DNA of 64,000 nucleotides from Escherichia coli. GTDB lineage: Bacteria > Pseudomonadota > Gammaproteobacteria > Enterobacterales > Enterobacteriaceae. Position numbers and translations under genes: made by a program. Positions 1 through 8,758 of this stretch are shown piece after piece (within the stretch, counting starts at the first letter, position 1; every line of letters starts with the position of its first letter). The notes under the pieces were generated by a model that was not told the origin of the DNA, made no database searches, and saw only the letters and a list, made by a program, of their open reading frames with translations. The stretch lies in the NCBI RefSeq assembly GCF_050920415.1, contig NZ_CP169309.1. One strand, given 5' to 3'.

Positions 1-12
1 GGCAATGTAATC

Positions 13-915
13 ATGCGCTGGATTAAAACAGCCCGTGACCGTGATGAAATGGAAAGGCTAATGCAAGCGGCTTGCGATGCTTTCACGGAAGAAATACCCC
101 GAGCGGAGGCCGTGCCAGTGCCGGAAATTGATTTTCAAAAAAGTCTGGCCCTTTATCCGGTATTCGATTTGCATATAGGGGCGCTTGCTCATAAAGCTGA
201 GTGCGGCGAAAGCTACGACACCGGGATCGCTGAACGCGTGCTAAATGATTTCTTTGACTACGCGGTAGGCGCTGCGCCAATGTCTGAAAAGGCTGTTTTG
301 CTTCTCGGCGGTGATGTGCTTCACACTGACGGCCTGTTACCAGTGACGCCATCAAGTAATCACGTTTTAGATTGTGATTCACGCTACGCAAAACTGGTTT
401 ATGTGGCGATCCGGTCGGTCCGGCGTGCGGTCGGGAAGATGTTACTAAATCATAAGGATGTCGAGATCCAGGTATTATCCGGTAATCACGACCAATCAGG
501 TATGATCTGGCTACGTGCTGCGCTTGCGGCTTTTTACGAAGATGAGCCGCGTGTGACTGTTGACGTGTCACCTGCCATTGTCCACCACACACAGTACGGC
601 AAAACATTCCTTGCTTACCACCACGGGCACACTATCAAAAAGCCAGAAAATTTACTTTCTGCCTGCGTTTCTGACTGGCGGGAGGATTTCGGCAAGTCGT
701 CGGCGGTTTACGCTCATTGCGGGCACTGGCATCATCAACGGCTGATTGAATCATCGTTAGGCGTTGTCGAGTATCACGGCACATTAGCTGGCAAAGACGC
801 TTATTCAACGAATGGCGGCTGGCGGTCGCGGAGGCTGGCGGCGGTAATAATTTACAGTCCTGATCACGGGGAGATCGGGCGCTTTGTTTATTACCCTGAA
901 TATTCCATTTTGTAA
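13..915 (+). CDS. Calcineurin-like metallophosphoesterase-fold protein (phage-associated); may be 5'-truncated by the window edge
   Basis: Motifs DLHIG, GGDVLHTDG, GNHD, HHGH, GHWHH in the translation; reading frame is open back to position 1. Confidence 0.55.
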   Translation: MRWIKTARDRDEMERLMQAACDAFTEEIPRAEAVPVPEIDFQKSLALYPVFDLHIGALAHKAECGESYDTGIAERVLNDFFDYAVGAAPMSEKAVLLLGGDVLHTDGLLPVTPSSNHVLDCDSRYAKLVYVAIRSVRRAVGKMLLNHKDVEIQVLSGNHDQSGMIWLRAALAAFYEDEPRVTVDVSPAIVHHTQYGKTFLAYHHGHTIKKPENLLSACVSDWREDFGKSSAVYAHCGHWHHQRLIESSLGVVEYHGTLAGKDAYSTNGGWRSRRLAAVIIYSPDHGEIGRFVYYPEYSIL

Positions 916-933
916 ACCTGAGGAAATACCATA

Positions 934-2355
934 ATGGTGACTGAGCAAGTAAACTCATTACGCCAGGAACGGGAAGCTGCTGTGATAGGTGGACTCCTGT
1001 TAGGCGGGCTTACTCCTAACGCGCAAGATGTTCTTGCTACGCTCGATCCTGAAGTCTTCACCATTCCACTATATAAACGAGCGTTTGAGATCATCCGGGC
1101 GCAAGCCAGAAACAGAAACCTTATTGACGCGCTGATGGTCGGTGATGAAATCGGTAACGAAAATTTTGTCCCGCTAATGCAAACTGCGCGATCGTGTCCA
1201 TCTGCCGCCAACCTGAAGGGGTACGCCGCGCTATTGCAGGAGGAATATCAGCGGCGGCAAATGCTGGAACTAATGGACGATATACGCTACAACCTGGAAA
1301 CCGGGACACTTGAATCTGTCAGGGAGACGATGAAATATTTTGATTCCCGGTATTCAAAATTAAAGGTAACAAAAGATCAGATTATCCCGGTGCTGTTGCG
1401 CGATGCTGTCCAGGAATACACGGAAGTGCTAAGTAAACGCATGGAGTGTGGCGTGAACTCTGACAACATCAAAACAGGGATTGACCCACTCGACGAAATG
1501 TTAGGCGGCATTAACGCTACTGATCTGGTGCTTATAGCTGGACGCCCAGGGTCTGGTAAATCTGCGTTGGCGTTGGCAATTGCCCGCGCGGCGGCTGAAC
1601 GTCCATACCCTGGCAGCGAAGGTCAACGGGTCGGCGTTTTGCTGTTCACGCTTGAAATGTCGCTCGATCAGATGACTGAACGAGCTATCGCTGGCGCTGG
1701 GAATTTATCAACGGATTGCCTACGTAATCCGGTAAAACTGGATGACGAAGGATGGGCGCACGTTGCCCAGGGGATGAGCGCCCTTGCCGATCTCGATGTG
1801 TGGATTGTTGACGCATCGCAGTTAACGGTTGAGGAAATACGCGCCACCGTCGAACGGATGAAACAGGACCATCCTAATCTTGGAATGGTGATGATTGACT
1901 ACATCGGGTTAATGAAACTGGCTAAGGCCGAACGTCATGATCTCGCCGTAGGGCAATTGTCGTGGTCATTGAAAATGATGGCGAAAGAGTTGCGCGTGCC
2001 AGTGGCGGCGCTGGCGCAATTATCCCGCCGCGTTGAAGAACGACCGAACAAGCGCCCGAACAATTCTGATCTGCGTGATTCCGGTAATCTTGAACAAGAC
2101 GCAGACCGGATCATCATGGTCTACCGCGACGGCTACTACAACGAACAATCAGTTGCCCGCGAATACATGGAGATCATCGTTTCAAAAAACCGTCACGGGA
2201 AAACGGGGACTGTTTACCAGCGGTTTGACGATAACGGCAACATCATTCCATGCGACCAGGCTCGCGCGGCGTCCGCCTGCATCCAGTCAATGCAACAACG
2301 TCCGGCAGCAAGCCGATTCTCCCCACGAAATAACCAGAATAACTCATCCTTTTAA
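934..2355 (+). CDS. DnaB-like replicative DNA helicase (phage type)
   Basis: 473 aa; Walker A motif GRPGSGKSALALAIA and DnaB-like N- and C-terminal regions; GAGGA ribosome-binding site before the ATG. Confidence 0.8.
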   Translation: MVTEQVNSLRQEREAAVIGGLLLGGLTPNAQDVLATLDPEVFTIPLYKRAFEIIRAQARNRNLIDALMVGDEIGNENFVPLMQTARSCPSAANLKGYAALLQEEYQRRQMLELMDDIRYNLETGTLESVRETMKYFDSRYSKLKVTKDQIIPVLLRDAVQEYTEVLSKRMECGVNSDNIKTGIDPLDEMLGGINATDLVLIAGRPGSGKSALALAIARAAAERPYPGSEGQRVGVLLFTLEMSLDQMTERAIAGAGNLSTDCLRNPVKLDDEGWAHVAQGMSALADLDVWIVDASQLTVEEIRATVERMKQDHPNLGMVMIDYIGLMKLAKAERHDLAVGQLSWSLKMMAKELRVPVAALAQLSRRVEERPNKRPNNSDLRDSGNLEQDADRIIMVYRDGYYNEQSVAREYMEIIVSKNRHGKTGTVYQRFDDNGNIIPCDQARAASACIQSMQQRPAASRFSPRNNQNNSSF

Positions 2356-2434
2356 TTAACTTGAGCAAACGGCTTACCGGAAAGTTGATCTCTTTCTGGT
2401 GGCTGTTTTCGCGCTTAAAACGAGGCGAAAAACA

Positions 2435-2992
2435 ATGAGCATTGAACTTGAAACAAAAGTTATCAATATCCTTGAACTGGACGGCATCGCAACAATGCAC
2501 CAGCTACGCCAGAAAACCGGATTATCAGCGGAATATGACGAAGCCGGATGTTTGCCTGAGACAATTAAACACTTGATTGATACTGGTATTGTCGAGCGTG
2601 TATATACATATTTCGGACCGCGCCGCAGATTATTGGGGTATCGAATTAAATATTTGTATGCACAACGTCGTGATCGTGTGGCGGCGTTATTTAGTGACTA
2701 CAGCGTTAAGAAGCGTATGCGTGACATTAGCGCGGAAACTGGTATCCCGTGGAATTACCTGTCGCGCACGCTGCGTTTAATGGTACTTGATGAAACGCTT
2801 TGCATAGACACCAATAAACACGGCCTTAACTTTTACTCACTGTTTAAACCTGGTCGCTTTGGTCACGCTAATGATCTCGCGTTTGATTTTGACAGCCGCC
2901 TGAATGAATACCGGAAAAATAACGGCCTGTTACCGGATAAACCAGTATTTGAGATCGAAAAACTTAACGGTGAAACGGGGTTAGAATTATGA
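2435..2992 (+). CDS. Hypothetical phage protein with an N-terminal winged-helix-like segment
   Basis: ORF 2399-2992; start chosen at MSIELETKV after a GAGG ribosome-binding site; no recognised family. Confidence 0.45.
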   Translation: MSIELETKVINILELDGIATMHQLRQKTGLSAEYDEAGCLPETIKHLIDTGIVERVYTYFGPRRRLLGYRIKYLYAQRRDRVAALFSDYSVKKRMRDISAETGIPWNYLSRTLRLMVLDETLCIDTNKHGLNFYSLFKPGRFGHANDLAFDFDSRLNEYRKNNGLLPDKPVFEIEKLNGETGLEL

Positions 2993-3195
2993 GACGGGTA
3001 ATCTTTTATTCAGTTGAAACGTTTGTCGACGATACGCGCGTTTATTATCCGTGGGAAGTATACGACGCAAAGGTGTATACACCGCCACTGATGCGGAAAT
3101 ATAAACACGTAAAATTTAACCGGGTTTTTGTGCCAATGCGCGATGCATTGCGGGCGCTGCGCGGGGAATTACGAAACACAATGCGGATTGTGTAA
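2989..3195 (+). CDS. Hypothetical small phage protein (68 aa)
   Basis: ATGA start/stop overlap with the upstream ORF suggests translational coupling; no recognisable motif. Confidence 0.35.
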   Translation: MRRVIFYSVETFVDDTRVYYPWEVYDAKVYTPPLMRKYKHVKFNRVFVPMRDALRALRGELRNTMRIV

Positions 3196-3205
3196 GGAGG
3201 GGATT

Positions 3206-3403
3206 ATGAACAAGGATTTAGAATTGACCGTGGAGGATTTAAGCACGATTGCGGAATACATGCGCGGCGATGATCCTGATAAACCTGTCACTGTTGACAT
3301 GAAATATTTAAAAGGCGCTTACATGACAAGCTCGCGGCTAATTTCTTTGCAGGCGATTATGTATGCGCGGGCGCAATGGAAAAATAGCAACGGTGTATTA
3401 TGA
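3206..3403 (+). CDS. Hypothetical small phage protein (65 aa)
   Basis: Strong Shine-Dalgarno AAGGAGG 6 nt upstream of the ATG at 3206; stop overlaps the NinB-like start. Confidence 0.45.
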   Translation: MNKDLELTVEDLSTIAEYMRGDDPDKPVTVDMKYLKGAYMTSSRLISLQAIMYARAQWKNSNGVL

Positions 3404-3831
3404 GGCAAATTAGATTTGAAGTAGTTAATGACGCCGTGAAAGAAAATGCTATCAGGCAGATAAGGGAAATACAGCCTGATAGCAAAAGCCCGCTGATAAT
3501 TACCATCCAGGAGAAAACCCGCTCACTAAGCCAAAATGCGTTGCTTTGGGCGCTGCTAACCGACATTAGCGATCAGGTTAATTGGTACGGCAAGAAGCTG
3601 TCTCCGGAAGACTGGAAAGCGGTATTCACTGCCGGACTTAAGAAATATGGCGTCGTCCCTAACCTGGATAAATCCGGCTTCGTTGTATTGGGAACGTCTA
3701 CAAGCCGGATGAGCAAATCGGAATTCAGTGAACTAATCGAATTAATTTACTCGTTCGGTGCTGAACATAATGTCCAATGGTCGGGTGATACGAAATTAAA
3801 TGAGGAATTCATAAAACGCTGGGGGCAATAA
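3400..3831 (+). CDS. NinB-like recombination protein (lambda Orf/NinB family)
   Basis: 143 aa; pattern IQEKTRSLSQNALLWALLTDISDQVNWYGKKLSPEDWKAVFTAGL resembles lambda NinB as recalled from memory. Confidence 0.7.
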   Translation: MRQIRFEVVNDAVKENAIRQIREIQPDSKSPLIITIQEKTRSLSQNALLWALLTDISDQVNWYGKKLSPEDWKAVFTAGLKKYGVVPNLDKSGFVVLGTSTSRMSKSEFSELIELIYSFGAEHNVQWSGDTKLNEEFIKRWGQ

Positions 3832-4007
3832 TGGCGCGTTATTATATGGCTAAACCTACCGGAATTTTGTATAAGGTTGATGGCGAATACGTTTTTTATT
3901 TTCACAACCAGGCGCGAGAGTGGCGATTGTGTCACGCGCACTTTCAGCACGAAATAGAAAACCACCCTGAATATTTTATTAAGGTTGACAATGTAACGGT
4001 GGCGTAA
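3831..4007 (+). CDS. Hypothetical small phage protein (58 aa)
   Basis: ATG overlaps the NinB-like stop by 1 nt (TAATG); translation MARYYMAKPTGILYKVDGEYVFYFHNQAREWRLCHAHFQHEIENHPEYFIKVDNVTVA; below the ORF-track length cut-off. Confidence 0.35.
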   Translation: MARYYMAKPTGILYKVDGEYVFYFHNQAREWRLCHAHFQHEIENHPEYFIKVDNVTVA

Positions 4008-4022
4008 CTGAGGATAGGCAAA

Positions 4023-4667
4023 ATGAATAAACTTAAAGCAATTGGCGTAATTCGCCATCGTGTAGACCCGGACTACCCTTCTTTTGAGGTTGCCACATAC
4101 CGCAACGAATACCAATATGGATCATCTTTCCTTGTGGGTGTTCGCGCTGATACTGGCGGCACTTATTCAGTTATGGCGGCTTCATGTGTTTTTGAAGAAT
4201 ATAAAAATATAGATGATGACGGCATGAATAAAGAAAGCGAAATTATTGATGAATTAATCGAAGATGAGCGGCATGATTGCGATGCGCCGAAAGTCACGGA
4301 ATGGAAACCAGGAGAAAAGCCTCCGTGCGGCGTGTGGCTTGATTGTTATTATCCTGATGGCTATCACATTGGGATTTTAATGTTTAAATTTATCGGTGAT
4401 AAATACGGGGTATACACAGAAAAAGGCAGTATACAGAAAGAAAATGCTATTGAATGGGGTTTTTATAATTATTATTTATACGTTGATCCGAAAGAAAAAG
4501 CACTGGCACAAATTGCGTTTGCGTTGGCTGCTAAGGTTATTGGTGAGGATGCGGCAGGAGAAATAAATTTCAATCGTGATAATGATTATTCGCGTGATTA
4601 TCGGAATATGGCAAAAGCCATTATTAATGGGGATATCCCGCTAACTAAATATAACGGGGATAAGTGA
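4023..4667 (+). CDS. Hypothetical protein, AT-rich cargo ORF (214 aa), function unknown
   Basis: GAGGA ribosome-binding site; markedly lower GC than flanking genes; acidic stretch followed by a Cys/His-containing segment (HDCDAPKVTEWKPGEKPPCGVWLDCYYPDGYH). Confidence 0.5.
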   Translation: MNKLKAIGVIRHRVDPDYPSFEVATYRNEYQYGSSFLVGVRADTGGTYSVMAASCVFEEYKNIDDDGMNKESEIIDELIEDERHDCDAPKVTEWKPGEKPPCGVWLDCYYPDGYHIGILMFKFIGDKYGVYTEKGSIQKENAIEWGFYNYYLYVDPKEKALAQIAFALAAKVIGEDAAGEINFNRDNDYSRDYRNMAKAIINGDIPLTKYNGDK

Positions 4668-4897
4668 TGGATAAAACCGCGACATTGTTATTGACTACGG
4701 CACGAATAAGGGAAATGCTCGGAGGAATAAGTAGGACAACATTCAGAGTATGGAAAATGAAATGGGAAGCGGCTGGAACACCATTTCCTGAACCGCTTCA
4801 CGAATTATCAACTACGTCGCGCCCTGTATATCGTTATCAAGATGTAATGCAGTTCTTTAAGTCAGTAGGCTTGCTTTCTGATACTGATAAAACGTAA
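4664..4897 (+). CDS. Putative excisionase / AlpA-family DNA-binding protein
   Basis: 77 aa; helix-turn-helix-like TTARIREMLGGISRTTFRVWK; lies next to the integrase; start overlaps the upstream stop (ATGA). Confidence 0.45.
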   Translation: MMDKTATLLLTTARIREMLGGISRTTFRVWKMKWEAAGTPFPEPLHELSTTSRPVYRYQDVMQFFKSVGLLSDTDKT

Positions 4898-6057
4898 TTA
4901 GCCCATAATTCCGCAGCGTCTTTCTGTTCTTCTACATAATCATATCTGTCATAAACTCCTAATACTCCGCCCAGGGTATGGCCCAACATTTTTTCGGCTA
5001 CCTGGGCGGTCACGCCTAATGCCGCTAAATGCGTGCGGCACGTCCGGCGCAAATCATGCGCAGTAAAACCCGCCTTAAATCCAATTTCATTACTAAGCCT
5101 TGTCGCTAGTCTTGTGCACACAGCTTTATCCATTGGTTTACCATCCAGCGACAATACCGCAGGGAAAACTATGTCGAAGTTGTGACAATTAAACATCATG
5201 CTTAATAGCTCGACGCTTAACGTTGACAGGCCGCGCGTAAACCGCTTTTTGTTTTTGGATAGTTCCGCAGGAATATTCCATACCCTGTTATTGAGATCAA
5301 AATGTTCACGCTTTGCTAGCCTCAATTCTACCGTCCTGCATCCTGTTAATAGCAGTAGTCTGAAGAATGTCATATTGGCCTTAGACATAAAATCGCCAGT
5401 CGTAAAACGCCAGAATTCCCCTACTTCCTCGCCAGATAAATATCTGTCGATCTTGCGCGGCGGTTTGCCAACGTCTTCCACTCGCAACAAGCGGATCTCG
5501 TTGTCTTTTACTATCCCTTTCCTTTGCGCCATAGCGACAATGGATTTCATGCGTCGTAACATCGCGCCAGCCTGTACCGGATGGCCCGCTTTCGTTATCT
5601 CTGAGAATATTGCCTCCCACGCCCTTGCGTTAATGTCATCCACAATAAAATCGCCATACCTCTTGATTATGTGCTTTTGTAAGTTTTGCTTGATCTCTTT
5701 GTATCCCTTAATTTCCCTGGTCGTCTGTTTATTAAGATAGTTGTTAACGATATCGCTAACGGTTGCTCTCGCCCTCGCCTCTTCAATGCGCTGCTTCTTA
5801 GCAAGTCCGGGATCTTTGCCGTCTGCTAATATCGCCTTGCACTCAATTACCGCTAGCCTGGCTTCCTTTAGCGTCATTATGCCATAGTTGCCTAGCTTCA
5901 TTCTTTTAGGCTTCCCGTCATACCTGTAGCGATACTGAAACGTAATTACGCCTTTCGGGCTTACCCTTACTGACAGACCGCCGCCATCCGGGATCTCGAC
6001 CGGACCATCATAACTTTTACCGTGGATGCTTCTTAACTTAGTGTCAGATAACGCCAT
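4837..6057 (-). CDS. Site-specific tyrosine integrase (P4 family)
   Basis: 406 aa; N-terminal arm-binding-type region (GLSVRVSPKGVITFQYRYRYDGK), C-terminal catalytic signature HDLRRT...LGH...YDRY. Confidence 0.85.
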   Translation of the reverse strand: MALSDTKLRSIHGKSYDGPVEIPDGGGLSVRVSPKGVITFQYRYRYDGKPKRMKLGNYGIMTLKEARLAVIECKAILADGKDPGLAKKQRIEEARARATVSDIVNNYLNKQTTREIKGYKEIKQNLQKHIIKRYGDFIVDDINARAWEAIFSEITKAGHPVQAGAMLRRMKSIVAMAQRKGIVKDNEIRLLRVEDVGKPPRKIDRYLSGEEVGEFWRFTTGDFMSKANMTFFRLLLLTGCRTVELRLAKREHFDLNNRVWNIPAELSKNKKRFTRGLSTLSVELLSMMFNCHNFDIVFPAVLSLDGKPMDKAVCTRLATRLSNEIGFKAGFTAHDLRRTCRTHLAALGVTAQVAEKMLGHTLGGVLGVYDRYDYVEEQKDAAELWANYVLSVSESKPTDLKNCITS

Positions 6058-6464
6058 AATCGCCCCTTATTTGGTGCACAACATGGTACACAAATCATGG
6101 TTTACGCAATATAACGCAAAAGCGCGCTTGTTTACAGCGAAAACCAGTAAATCTACTAAATTCATGGCGTTAGGGGTGATTTTGCTTGCGTATGTTTACG
6201 CTTGTGCGCGGTATGTAGCATTAGAAAGAGAAATGCTGCTGACCAACAGCGCACAACACGTGACTGAAACAGAGTGCTTCATAAGTTACCCTCAAACCTG
6301 CGTTAATAATCATGCGTAATTATTTGTTTCGCCTTAAAGAAATGCAAACAACTTCCGGCAAAAAAGTGATACGAGATCGATAACATAGCGTTGAAGAAAA
6401 GGATTTGATAATCCGCAAAATTTGCACAACACTGCCTGTAATACTTCCTGAACCAGAGACGATC

Positions 6465-7193
6465 ATGACCGTAACTCGCCCACGCGCCGAACGCGGCGCA
6501 TTTCCGCCCGGTACAGAACATTACGGACGTTCATTATTGGGCGCGCCTTTGATCTGGTTTCCGGCCCCAGCCGCCAGTCACGAAAGTGGTTTGATTCTGG
6601 CTGGCACCCACGGTGATGAAAACTCTTCGGTCGTGACCCTCTCCTGTGCTCTGCGGACATTGACACCTTCTTTGCGCCGCCATCATGTGGTGCTGTGTGT
6701 GAATCCTGACGGCTGCCAGTTAGGGTTACGGGCCAATGCTAATGGCGTGGATTTAAATAGAAACTTTCCGGCAGCAAACTGGAAGGAAGGTGAAACGGTT
6801 TATCGCTGGAACAGCGCCGCTGAAGAACGTGATGTCGTTTTACTGACAGGTGACAAACCTGGCTCCGAACCTGAAACTCAGGCGCTGTGCCAGCTTATAC
6901 ATCGCATTCAACCTGCCTGGGTGGTCTCATTCCACGATCCACTGGCCTGTATTGAAGACCCCAGACACAGCGAATTAGGTGAATGGCTGGCCCAGGCGTT
7001 TGAATTGCCACTGGTAACCAGCGTCGGTTATGAAACGCCTGGCTCTTTCGGCAGTTGGTGTGCAGATCTGAACTTGCATTGCATCACCGCAGAGTTTCCG
7101 CCCATCTCCTCCGACGAAGCCAGCGAAAAATATCTCTTTGCGATGGCAAACTTGCTGCGCTGGCATCCTAAAGATGCAATTCACCCGTTGTGA
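6465..7193 (+). CDS. mpaA: Murein peptide amidase A (gamma-D-Glu-Dap amidase)
   Basis: Translation MTVTRPRAERGAFPPGTEHYGRS...; 242 aa from the internal ATG, matching the known length. Confidence 0.85.
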   Translation: MTVTRPRAERGAFPPGTEHYGRSLLGAPLIWFPAPAASHESGLILAGTHGDENSSVVTLSCALRTLTPSLRRHHVVLCVNPDGCQLGLRANANGVDLNRNFPAANWKEGETVYRWNSAAEERDVVLLTGDKPGSEPETQALCQLIHRIQPAWVVSFHDPLACIEDPRHSELGEWLAQAFELPLVTSVGYETPGSFGSWCADLNLHCITAEFPPISSDEASEKYLFAMANLLRWHPKDAIHPL

Positions 7194-8133
7194 ACTGAAG
7201 CGCCGGTTCCACATCTACCGCCAGCCAGGTCGGTCCGTCAAGATCGGCGAAACTGACCTGCGGCACCAGCGGTAAAGCGGCGCTAATGGCACGAGAGGTA
7301 CACAACATGCAGCCCAGCATCAGACTAAAACCTTGTGCACGTGCTTCAGTCGCCAGCGCCAGCGCTTCCGTCAGGCCACCCGTTTTATCGAGCTTAATGT
7401 TAACCATCTCATAGCGCCCTTGCAGCGCCTTCAGATTGCTACGAGTATGACAACTTTCATCTGCACAAATCGGTAACGGATGAATAAAATTCTCCAGTGC
7501 CGCATCGTCCTGCGCAGGAAGCGGTTGTTCAAGCATCGCAACGCCTAAATCCGCCAATAGCTGGCAACGCGCCGCCAACCCTTCTGAACGCCAGGATTCA
7601 TTTGCATCAACGATCAGCGTCGCATCGGGCACAGCTGTGCGAATTGCCACCATCCGCTCACTGATAAGATGGTTATCCAGCTTCACTTTCAGTAATTTCG
7701 CGCCTGCCTGCCAGAGTGTTGATGCACTATTGGCCATCTGATCAGGCGTACCGATGACTACCGTCTGGGCAGTGGTGACTGTCTCGGGAAGCGTTATGCC
7801 GATCAAATCAGCCAGCGATTGCTGCTGTTTTCGCGCCGCCAGATCCCACAATGCACAATCCAGCGCATTACGTGCTGCGCCGGCAGGGAGAATTTTTTGC
7901 AACTCCTCCCGTGTCAGCCCTTTCTCTAATTGCGGCACGACGCTCATAATTTGCGCCATTACCGAGGCATCACTTTCTCCATAACGCGGATACGGCGTGC
8001 ATTCACCGGTGCCTTTAATACCTTCTTCTTCCAGTTCAACCACCACCACGCGCGCTTCACTACGACTTCCCCGAGCAATCACAAACGGGGTATGTAAGGG
8101 CCAGGCTTCCTCAAATACCTTAACGGTTCTCAT
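7168..8133 (-). CDS. ycjG: L-Ala-D/L-Glu epimerase
   Basis: Enolase-superfamily translation MRTVKVFEEAWPLHTPFVIARGSR...; 321 aa; 3' end overlaps mpaA convergently. Confidence 0.85.
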   Translation of the reverse strand: MRTVKVFEEAWPLHTPFVIARGSRSEARVVVVELEEEGIKGTGECTPYPRYGESDASVMAQIMSVVPQLEKGLTREELQKILPAGAARNALDCALWDLAARKQQQSLADLIGITLPETVTTAQTVVIGTPDQMANSASTLWQAGAKLLKVKLDNHLISERMVAIRTAVPDATLIVDANESWRSEGLAARCQLLADLGVAMLEQPLPAQDDAALENFIHPLPICADESCHTRSNLKALQGRYEMVNIKLDKTGGLTEALALATEARAQGFSLMLGCMLCTSRAISAALPLVPQVSFADLDGPTWLAVDVEPALQFTTGELHL

Positions 8134-8251
8134 CTTTACTCCTTGTTGTCGCGGTGGTCTGCAGATTAAGCGCAAATAGCGTTTGCTGTGTTATTGACAG
8201 TTAGCATAAACTAGGTGTGACGTTAACTATATGTAAACAGGAAAGATAATC

Positions 8252-8758
8252 ATGTCACAAACCGTTCATTTCCAGGGCAACCCGGTTACAGTCGCCAATT
8301 CCATCCCGCTGGCGGGTAGCAAAGCGCAGACTTTTACTCTCGTGGCAAAAGATCTGTCTGACGTCACCCTCGGTCAGTTTGCGGGTAAACGCAAAGTGCT
8401 GAACATTTTCCCGAGTATTGATACCGGTGTTTGCGCCGCATCAGTACGTAAGTTTAACCAACTGGCAACCGAGATCGACAACACCGTTGTGCTGTGTATC
8501 TCTGCTGATCTGCCGTTCGCCCAGTCTCGTTTCTGCGGCGCAGAAGGTCTGAACAACGTTATCACCCTCTCCACTTTCCGTAACGCTGAATTCCTGCAAG
8601 CCTACGGTGTGGCAATTGCTGATGGCCCACTGAAAGGTCTGGCAGCGCGTGCCGTTGTGGTTATCGATGAAAATGACAATGTGATTTTCAGCCAGCTGGT
8701 TGATGAAATCACCACCGAGCCGGATTACGAAGCAGCTCTGGCTGTACTGAAAGCATAA
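8252..8758 (+). CDS. tpx: Thiol peroxidase
   Basis: 168 aa; [28 protein letters not shown]... Confidence 0.92.

Follow-up and report, generated by a model that had tools for sequence, protein, structure and literature searches.

Near one end of a prophage in the 64,000-nucleotide stretch of Escherichia coli DNA analysed here (the window) lies an open reading frame of 214 codons, ORF214, which raises two questions: whether it is cargo picked up by the phage or a part of the phage itself, and what its product may do. The first ~6 kb of the window are one prophage arm, after which the E. coli genes mpaA, ycjG, tpx and tyrR follow. An earlier note on this DNA had located the frame between a nin-like region and xis/int, and this placement is correct, with ninB and ORF58 upstream and an xis-like gene and int downstream. 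The features of the arm are listed below.

13-915, exonuclease
934-2355, DnaB-type helicase
2399-2992, + strand, MarR/Lrp-AsnC-like gene, counterpart of mEp021 gp08
Between the MarR/Lrp-like gene and ninB, two small genes
3400-3831, + strand, recombination mediator of the ninB/orf family (phrog_72, E 7e-44), upstream neighbour of ORF214 in the same operon
3831-4007, + strand, ORF58, a small gene; its start codon and the ninB stop codon overlap (TAATG)
4010-4014, + strand, Shine-Dalgarno-like GAGGA, 8 nt 5' of the ORF214 ATG, read from the sequence
4023-4667, + strand, ORF214, an intact 214-aa ORF with an ATG start, homologue of mEp021 gp03
4667-4897, + strand, xis/AlpA-like winged-helix gene (phrog_4745; weak Xis_Gifsy_1 match)
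4837-6057, - strand, tyrosine integrase gene int (phrog_1, E 2e-66), convergent with xis, 61-bp overlap

A genuine gene and a core gene of mEp021-type phages

An ORF214-type frame of 214-220 aa is intact in all 46 related loci, one of which is cut by the contig end. Codon analysis (pN/pS) of 36 distinct genes of the family gave a pN/pS of 0.04 at a pS of 0.34 for aa 67-81, and so low a ratio beside synonymous diversity of 0.34 means that selection acts on the protein and not on the DNA. Every module of the protein shows a dN/dS of 0.10-0.35 when sequences of the same allele class are compared. ORF214 is a genuine gene and no chance ORF, and the view of the earlier note that it is a real gene with no assigned function holds, as it is intact and constrained across the 46 loci and annotated as hypothetical. 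Its product is an acidic (pI 4.7), soluble cytoplasmic protein of 214 aa.

DNA and protein searches assign the prophage to the mEp021 group, temperate coliphages that are non-lambdoid and Nus-dependent; the group has been named 'mEpimmI' and was reported to equal lambdoid phages in frequency in a human-gut coliphage collection (PMC11893012). Homologues of ORF214 with 51-62% amino acid identity over their full length are mEp021 gp03 (mEp021_03, AXN54122.1) and its counterparts in mEp010, mEp013, mEp044, mEp515, mEp554 and MagusPhagus; by tblastn, the seven phage isolates match 98-100% of the ORF214 query at 51-62% identity. These genes occupy the same place, between ninB and the xis-like gene, and are annotated only as 'hypothetical protein', and the paper describing the mEpimmI group does not discuss the gene (PMC11893012). 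A total of 413 homologues of ~215 aa were found, all of them from E. coli or its phages and with 51-100% identity; they form an orphan family confined to mEpimmI phages.

The dnaB-ninB backbone (by megablast) and ORF214 (by sensitive blastn) were both searched against 5,426 complete E. coli genomes. The backbone was found in 34 of these and ORF214 likewise in 34, in a single copy each and always annotated 'hypothetical protein'; all 34 backbone-carrying genomes have the gene, at the same position, as do all seven backbone-matching phage isolates. It was further found on 41 IMG/VR contigs. Given its presence in every carrier of the backbone, in one copy and at a fixed position, ORF214 is not a horizontally acquired 'moron', as the earlier note had proposed; the absence of a promoter or terminator of its own and its coupling to xis, described below, speak against that proposal as well. 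ORF214 is a core gene of mEp021-type (mEpimmI) phages with a fixed slot, not sporadic cargo.

The allele combination in the window is absent from the 5,426 complete E. coli genomes, where the best match has 80-82% DNA identity, and an exact-sequence lookup of the protein returned no record on contigs. Many homologues lie on contigs of 51-57 kb, approximately the size of a whole phage genome, and nearly all clusters of homologues at 90% identity have one member; both observations agree with a phage population that is widespread and very diverse in the sequenced samples. Many phages in IMG/VR encode a large terminase (~67-70% identity) or an Erf (~55-57%) related to those of mEpimmI phages (loci L134-L166 and L209-L247), and none of these contigs is among the 41 found with ORF214.

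Position in the early operon

The order ninB, ORF58, gp03, xis-like gene and convergent int is the same in RM9245, STEC308, mEp021, mEp013, MagusPhagus, LSU61 and the 53-kb mEp-like contig L047. The neighbourhood analysis of homologues that the earlier note had called for finds conservation and one fixed slot across the group. The stop codon of ORF214 and the ATG of xis overlap (TGATG), and in 42 of 44 loci the xis start falls between -8 and +4 nt from the ORF214 stop; ORF214 is translationally coupled to the xis-like gene. By consensus scan, the + strand has no sigma-70-like promoter between 2300 and ORF214, and no convincing terminator lies in the flanks of the gene, the nearby terminator-like matches being weak and inside the gene. 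Promoter-like sites in the region are fewer than the shuffle means, and terminator-like sites are near them. Two antisense (- strand) pairs of sigma-70-like hexamers occur within ORF214 in AT-rich sequence, at 4374-4402 and 4585-4614, and are probably chance matches, as the region stays below its shuffles in promoter-like sites.

A string of co-directional genes starts at a Cro-like gene beside the repressor and extends through ORF214, which is packed tightly with the replication and recombination genes in the same direction. With no promoter or terminator of its own and with overlapping stop and start codons, ORF214 reads as a cistron of the early operon, the penultimate one of a long co-directional unit, early timing being taken from the gene order. 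The small gene immediately upstream, ORF58, is present in 45 of 46 related loci with 55-100% identity and is β-rich; it was left unannotated in the mEp021, RM9245 and LSU61 records, and PHROGs, PADLOC and NCBIfam returned no match for it.

Convergent xis and int genes with overlapping 3' ends are also present in mEp021 (gp02/gp01), STEC308, mEp013, MagusPhagus and L047, and in this arrangement transcription of the early operon would enter int in the antisense direction. The int gene of the window has 94.5% DNA identity to the end of the LSU61 prophage, whose integrase is of type III according to the mEpimmI paper (PMC11893012). This homology ends at ~6369, and the window passes straight into mpaA (region ~6058-6462); LSU61 instead runs on into a QueH fragment and pgrR. 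From the comparison of the two junctions, the pgrR-ycjY-ymjC stretch seems to be missing beside this prophage, and a similar deletion of ~7 kb has been noted for the MLI107 prophage (PMC11893012).

Elsewhere in the arm, the MarR/Lrp-AsnC-like gene is very variable among the group (34-99% identity, three classes), and a terminator-like hairpin (2374-2402) lies just 5' of it. An HNH homing endonuclease gene is located between the exonuclease gene and dnaB in some members (locus L003 at 4645-5148 and 7655-8392; the mEp010 and mEp515 records), and an N4/N6 DNA methyltransferase gene just before ninB in mEp021, both being absent from the window. Such cases indicate that the early arm accepts insertions at several points while ORF214 stays fixed. 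No Rfam match at E <= 1 was obtained in positions 1-7000, and no meaningful repeats were found in 3700-6500.

Base composition

GC content falls along the arm from 51% in the exonuclease gene and dnaB to 42-46% from the marR-like gene to ORF58 and 39.7% in ORF214 (GC3 32.6%), then rises through xis (41.9%) and int (46.0%) to 52-54% in the host genes. The earlier note had reported a sharp drop of GC across the ORF. Low GC is real when the gene is set against its immediate neighbours (39.7% vs 42-46%), and the change along the arm is a gradient; the truly sharp drop covers 147 nt only, gene nt 319-465 (window 4341-4487), with 29.3% GC. This segment encodes the cassette described below, whose allele class in the window has 29-33% GC, the other classes having 35-42% and one of them 50%. 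The low GC thus lies mainly in one internal cassette allele and is not a property of ORF214 as a unit.

Architecture of the ORF214 protein

An AlphaFold2 (AF2) model of ORF214, computed from a 28-sequence alignment (mean pLDDT 74.8), together with the alignment divides the protein into four parts.

4023-4208, + strand, module N (aa 1-62), small β-barrel A; modelled strands within aa 8-59, pLDDT 74-85
4209-4340, + strand, acidic segment (aa 63-106, net charge -9) with the near-invariant core DDDGMNKESEIIDELIEDERHDC (aa 64-86)
4341-4487, + strand, hypervariable cassette (aa 107-155), second SH3/Tudor-like β-barrel B; pLDDT 79-92, strands between aa 105 and 152
4488-4664, + strand, conserved C-terminal helical domain (aa 156-214); modelled helices 156-173, 175-178 and 188-201

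In the acidic core the columns D64-E71, I75, E77-I79, D81, E82, D85 and C86 are invariant. The segment contains an amphipathic helix (aa 75-83), in which the hydrophobic residues I74, I75, L78 and I79 are flanked by Asp and Glu, and AF2 models aa 63-87 as disordered (pLDDT <50). A core that is near-invariant yet disordered in the model is typical of a motif that folds on binding. An internal duplication as the origin of the two barrels was considered and rejected, as hhalign gave E 0.2-0.9 and only a short W-x-F/Y motif is common to both. No silent copies of the cassette were found elsewhere in the window.

ORF214 has no sequence-profile match in Pfam, PHROG, NCBIfam, PADLOC or PDB, and a PHROGs search repeated at E <= 5 with eight diverse family members still returned nothing. 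No PADLOC-DB family was matched at E <= 0.1 by ORF214 or by five neighbouring proteins. The earlier note had asked for sensitive profile searches, and these recovered only the gene's own family: a search of 1.84 billion (1.84e9) representative proteins gave nine entries, comprising two full-length clusters at 50% identity, fragments and one short form of 127 aa (P0127). In the short form, module N runs straight into the C-terminal domain, with neither acidic segment nor cassette between them. It fills the ORF214 slot in contig L047, behind an Ant-like anti-repressor gene (L047 4517-5637; phrog_1726, E 3.5e-29) inserted between ninB and the short form. Structural matches were weak and generic (TM 0.2-0.3); the resemblance to small β-barrel domains of the SH3, Tudor, KOW and WYL-like kinds is of this generic sort, and ORF214 differs from them in that it lacks an HTH or WCX partner domain and has no sequence motifs in common with them. 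ORF214 encodes no recognisable enzymatic domain, and its product most likely acts by binding other proteins.

The earlier note had also pointed to an acidic patch followed by Cys/His motifs that could bind metal. The peptides it quoted are present at aa 84-115. As a site, the Cys/His cluster is not conserved: of 149 distinct proteins of the family, 147 retain C86, 109 retain H84, 126 C102, 136 C108 and 84 H115. C102 and C108 are missing from whole cassette classes, H84 and H115 are also replaced in whole allele classes, and H84 and C86 fall in the segment that AF2 models as disordered. As there is no invariant set of three to four ligands and C86 alone is near-invariant, we rejected a metal-binding Cys/His protein.

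Mosaic evolution of the modules

The same 149 distinct proteins of the family were clustered module by module at 65% identity. This analysis revealed two classes of module N, eight of the cassette (a count that we give as at least seven) and two of the C-terminal module, which occur in mixed combinations, four of the cassette classes pairing with both N classes. At finer clustering in a set of 44 loci, module N falls into three classes, the third being minor. Mean pairwise identity is 0.62 for N (aa 8-62), 0.83 for the acidic segment (aa 63-106), 0.42 with a minimum of 0.14 for the cassette (aa 107-155) and 0.83 for the C-terminal domain (aa 156-214). For the whole protein it is 0.67, as against 0.94-0.95 for DnaB, NinB and the repressor at the same loci. 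Within classes, dN/dS is 0.23-0.24 for N, 0.15-0.35 for the cassette and 0.10-0.22 for the C domain, and between cassette classes pS is saturated at 0.68.

The gene of the window is itself a mosaic of two partial megablast matches, nt 1-323 resembling STEC306-308 (96%) and nt 190-608 resembling E21845 (93%); the stretch common to both, nt 190-323, is the region coding for the acidic segment. On these sequence patterns, the modules of ORF214 reassort by recombination, and the cassette shows old functional allele classes that recombination has shuffled and that are each under purifying selection. Allelic diversity of this kind is as expected of a gene in genetic conflict. Deep, purified allele classes could also arise by drift and recombination in a tolerant domain, without a polymorphic ligand. 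An unchanging acidic segment combined with swappable variable pieces suggests a protein that binds other proteins in early infection.

Search for a co-varying partner

Several candidate partners within the phage were considered. Cassette class showed adjusted mutual information of 0.05 with xis type and 0.00 with integrase type, and a link of the cassette to integrase or xis specificity was rejected, the cassette classes occurring with all three xis types and with all int types. Values of 0.23-0.28 were obtained with the Cro-like gene and the replication initiator; these reflect clonal groups, and the cassette class of the window occurs with three initiator and four Cro-like classes, so this link was rejected as well.

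For a genome-wide test of co-variation we used 33 non-redundant, near-complete IMG/VR phage genomes of ~54 kb each, tiled from four anchors (ORF214, Erf, large terminase and J), and scored six-frame peptide 6-mers present in >=75% of the genomes of a class and in <=10% of the others, exact 21-mers being too strict. Class-specific peptides mapped to ORF214 itself for the cassette classes (n=8, 13, 6 and 3) and the N classes (n=12 and 19). Two clusters, both trivial, fell outside it: one cassette class had 11 aa elsewhere in the genome, and another had the 3' end of the neighbouring ORF58. For class 2 of the C module (n=4) hits were scattered, and the genomes are too few to separate clonal relatedness from a real link. 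No second phage locus tracking the variable modules of ORF214 was found in the 33 genomes. Docking of the acidic segment on ORF58 or Xis was not favoured either: when ORF58, ORF214 and Xis were joined by linkers and modelled as one fusion in AF2 from a paired alignment, the segment remained unordered (pLDDT 28-51, pTM 0.29), which we count as a weak negative.

Possible functions of ORF214

The reading that we tentatively place first, as a working proposal, is that ORF214 may be an early-made adaptor or inhibitor serving host takeover or counter-defence. The invariant amphipathic acidic helix would dock onto a conserved partner and fold in doing so, the partner being a protein of the host or one of the core proteins of the phage, and the two β-barrels would give allele-specific recognition of a second, polymorphic ligand. 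Given that no phage locus co-varies with the modules, this ligand would be encoded outside the phage genome, by the host or by a rival mobile element. The protein would be made early after infection or induction. The adaptor mechanism is drawn from the architecture and the evolutionary pattern, and the early timing from the order of the genes.

HsdS-type specificity subunits have variable recognition modules that alternate with conserved linkers, and recombination in the conserved parts yields new combinations. By analogy, ORF214 might be a polymorphic, non-enzymatic specificity protein in which the barrels are exchangeable cassettes and the acidic helix couples them to a conserved cellular machine, different alleles neutralising or recruiting different variants of a host defence or a rival element; recombination in the conserved linker would then let the phage population switch specificity. 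In this elaborated form we regard the idea as improbable. The analogy to HsdS is one of layout only, since ORF214 has no Pfam match, is half the size, is acidic and has no partner enzyme genes nearby.

Among the rival explanations, a modulator of the lysis-lysogeny decision is a possible, if rather doubtful, one. ORF214 would be the counterpart of the proteins of the lambda exo-xis region such as Ea22, made very early from a leftward-type operon and biasing development through its binding of a host protein. Lambda Ea22 is reported to be highly diverse in sequence and preserved in role; it acts early, and its conserved mobile element has been proposed to bind a host protein (PMC7093339; PMC10834534). 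In position and evolutionary behaviour this region, and Ea22 especially, is the nearest analogue of ORF214. In favour of such a role, ORF214 lies between recombination genes and xis in an early operon, as lambda ea22 and ea8.5 do, the mobile element parallels the invariant disordered acidic segment, and in one relative, contig L047, the slot has taken up the Ant-like anti-repressor gene. Homology of ORF214 to these proteins was nevertheless rejected, with hhalign probabilities of 0.3% for Ea22 and 0.1% for Ea8.5 and no match in PHROGs or Pfam. The folds and oligomer architectures also differ, ORF214 having β-barrels where Ea22 has a coiled coil and an α/β C-terminal domain. Ea22 has no reported internal allele cassette, and a role of this kind alone would leave the hypervariable cassette with its at least seven allele classes unexplained.

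The earlier note had further held that the position of the gene suits defence, anti-defence or superinfection exclusion, and a form of this is that the prophage expresses ORF214 as a defence or exclusion protein whose variable barrels sense proteins of incoming phages. Hypervariability and module shuffling do resemble those of sensors in conflict systems, and the gene is near the prophage end, adjoining the integration module, so that this part of the claim stands. The rest fares less well: no PADLOC model was matched, the protein has no recognisable effector domain, and the gene is universal in a fixed slot and not one of several alternative hotspot genes. It has no upstream promoter-like site on its strand and is embedded in the early lytic operon. 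The exclusion demonstrated experimentally in these phages is due to Lpp lipoproteins encoded elsewhere (PMC11893012). Because ORF214 sits inside the long co-directional early operon, prophage-expressed defence or exclusion is less likely than an early-lytic role, and we hold it to be unlikely.

An accessory or regulatory role in excision and integration, for instance by sequestering Xis or Int through the acidic, DNA-like segment, would agree with the constant location of ORF214 directly 5' of xis and with the stop/start overlap in 42 of 44 loci, and such a segment could act as a DNA mimic towards a basic DNA-binding protein. We give this role little credence, as there is next to no association of cassette class with the three types of xis or with the types of integrase (adjusted mutual information 0.05 and 0.00), the fusion model with ORF58 and Xis was a weak negative (pLDDT 28-51, pTM 0.29), and stop/start overlaps are common in phage operons regardless of function. 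A replication or recombination accessory acting with NinB, the exonuclease or the DnaB-type helicase is equally improbable: the gene is adjacent to theirs in the same operon and its invariant motif could dock onto these highly conserved neighbours (0.90-0.95 identity), but a housekeeping accessory is not expected to bear a cassette whose alleles are 14-42% identical, no co-variation with the initiator holds up (the cassette class of the window occurs with three initiator classes), and ORF214 resembles no replication or recombination family.

Implications

Most early genes of mEpimmI phages are still without an assigned function. ORF214 is kept by every member examined and yet is among the most diverged genes of its genome arm, and its modular layout makes it a well-defined experimental target. 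If the cassette does not set specificity, ORF214 would be one more conserved orphan early gene; if it is true that the cassette sets specificity for host strains or defence systems, the gene would show, in compact natural form, how recognition can be switched by exchanging modules.
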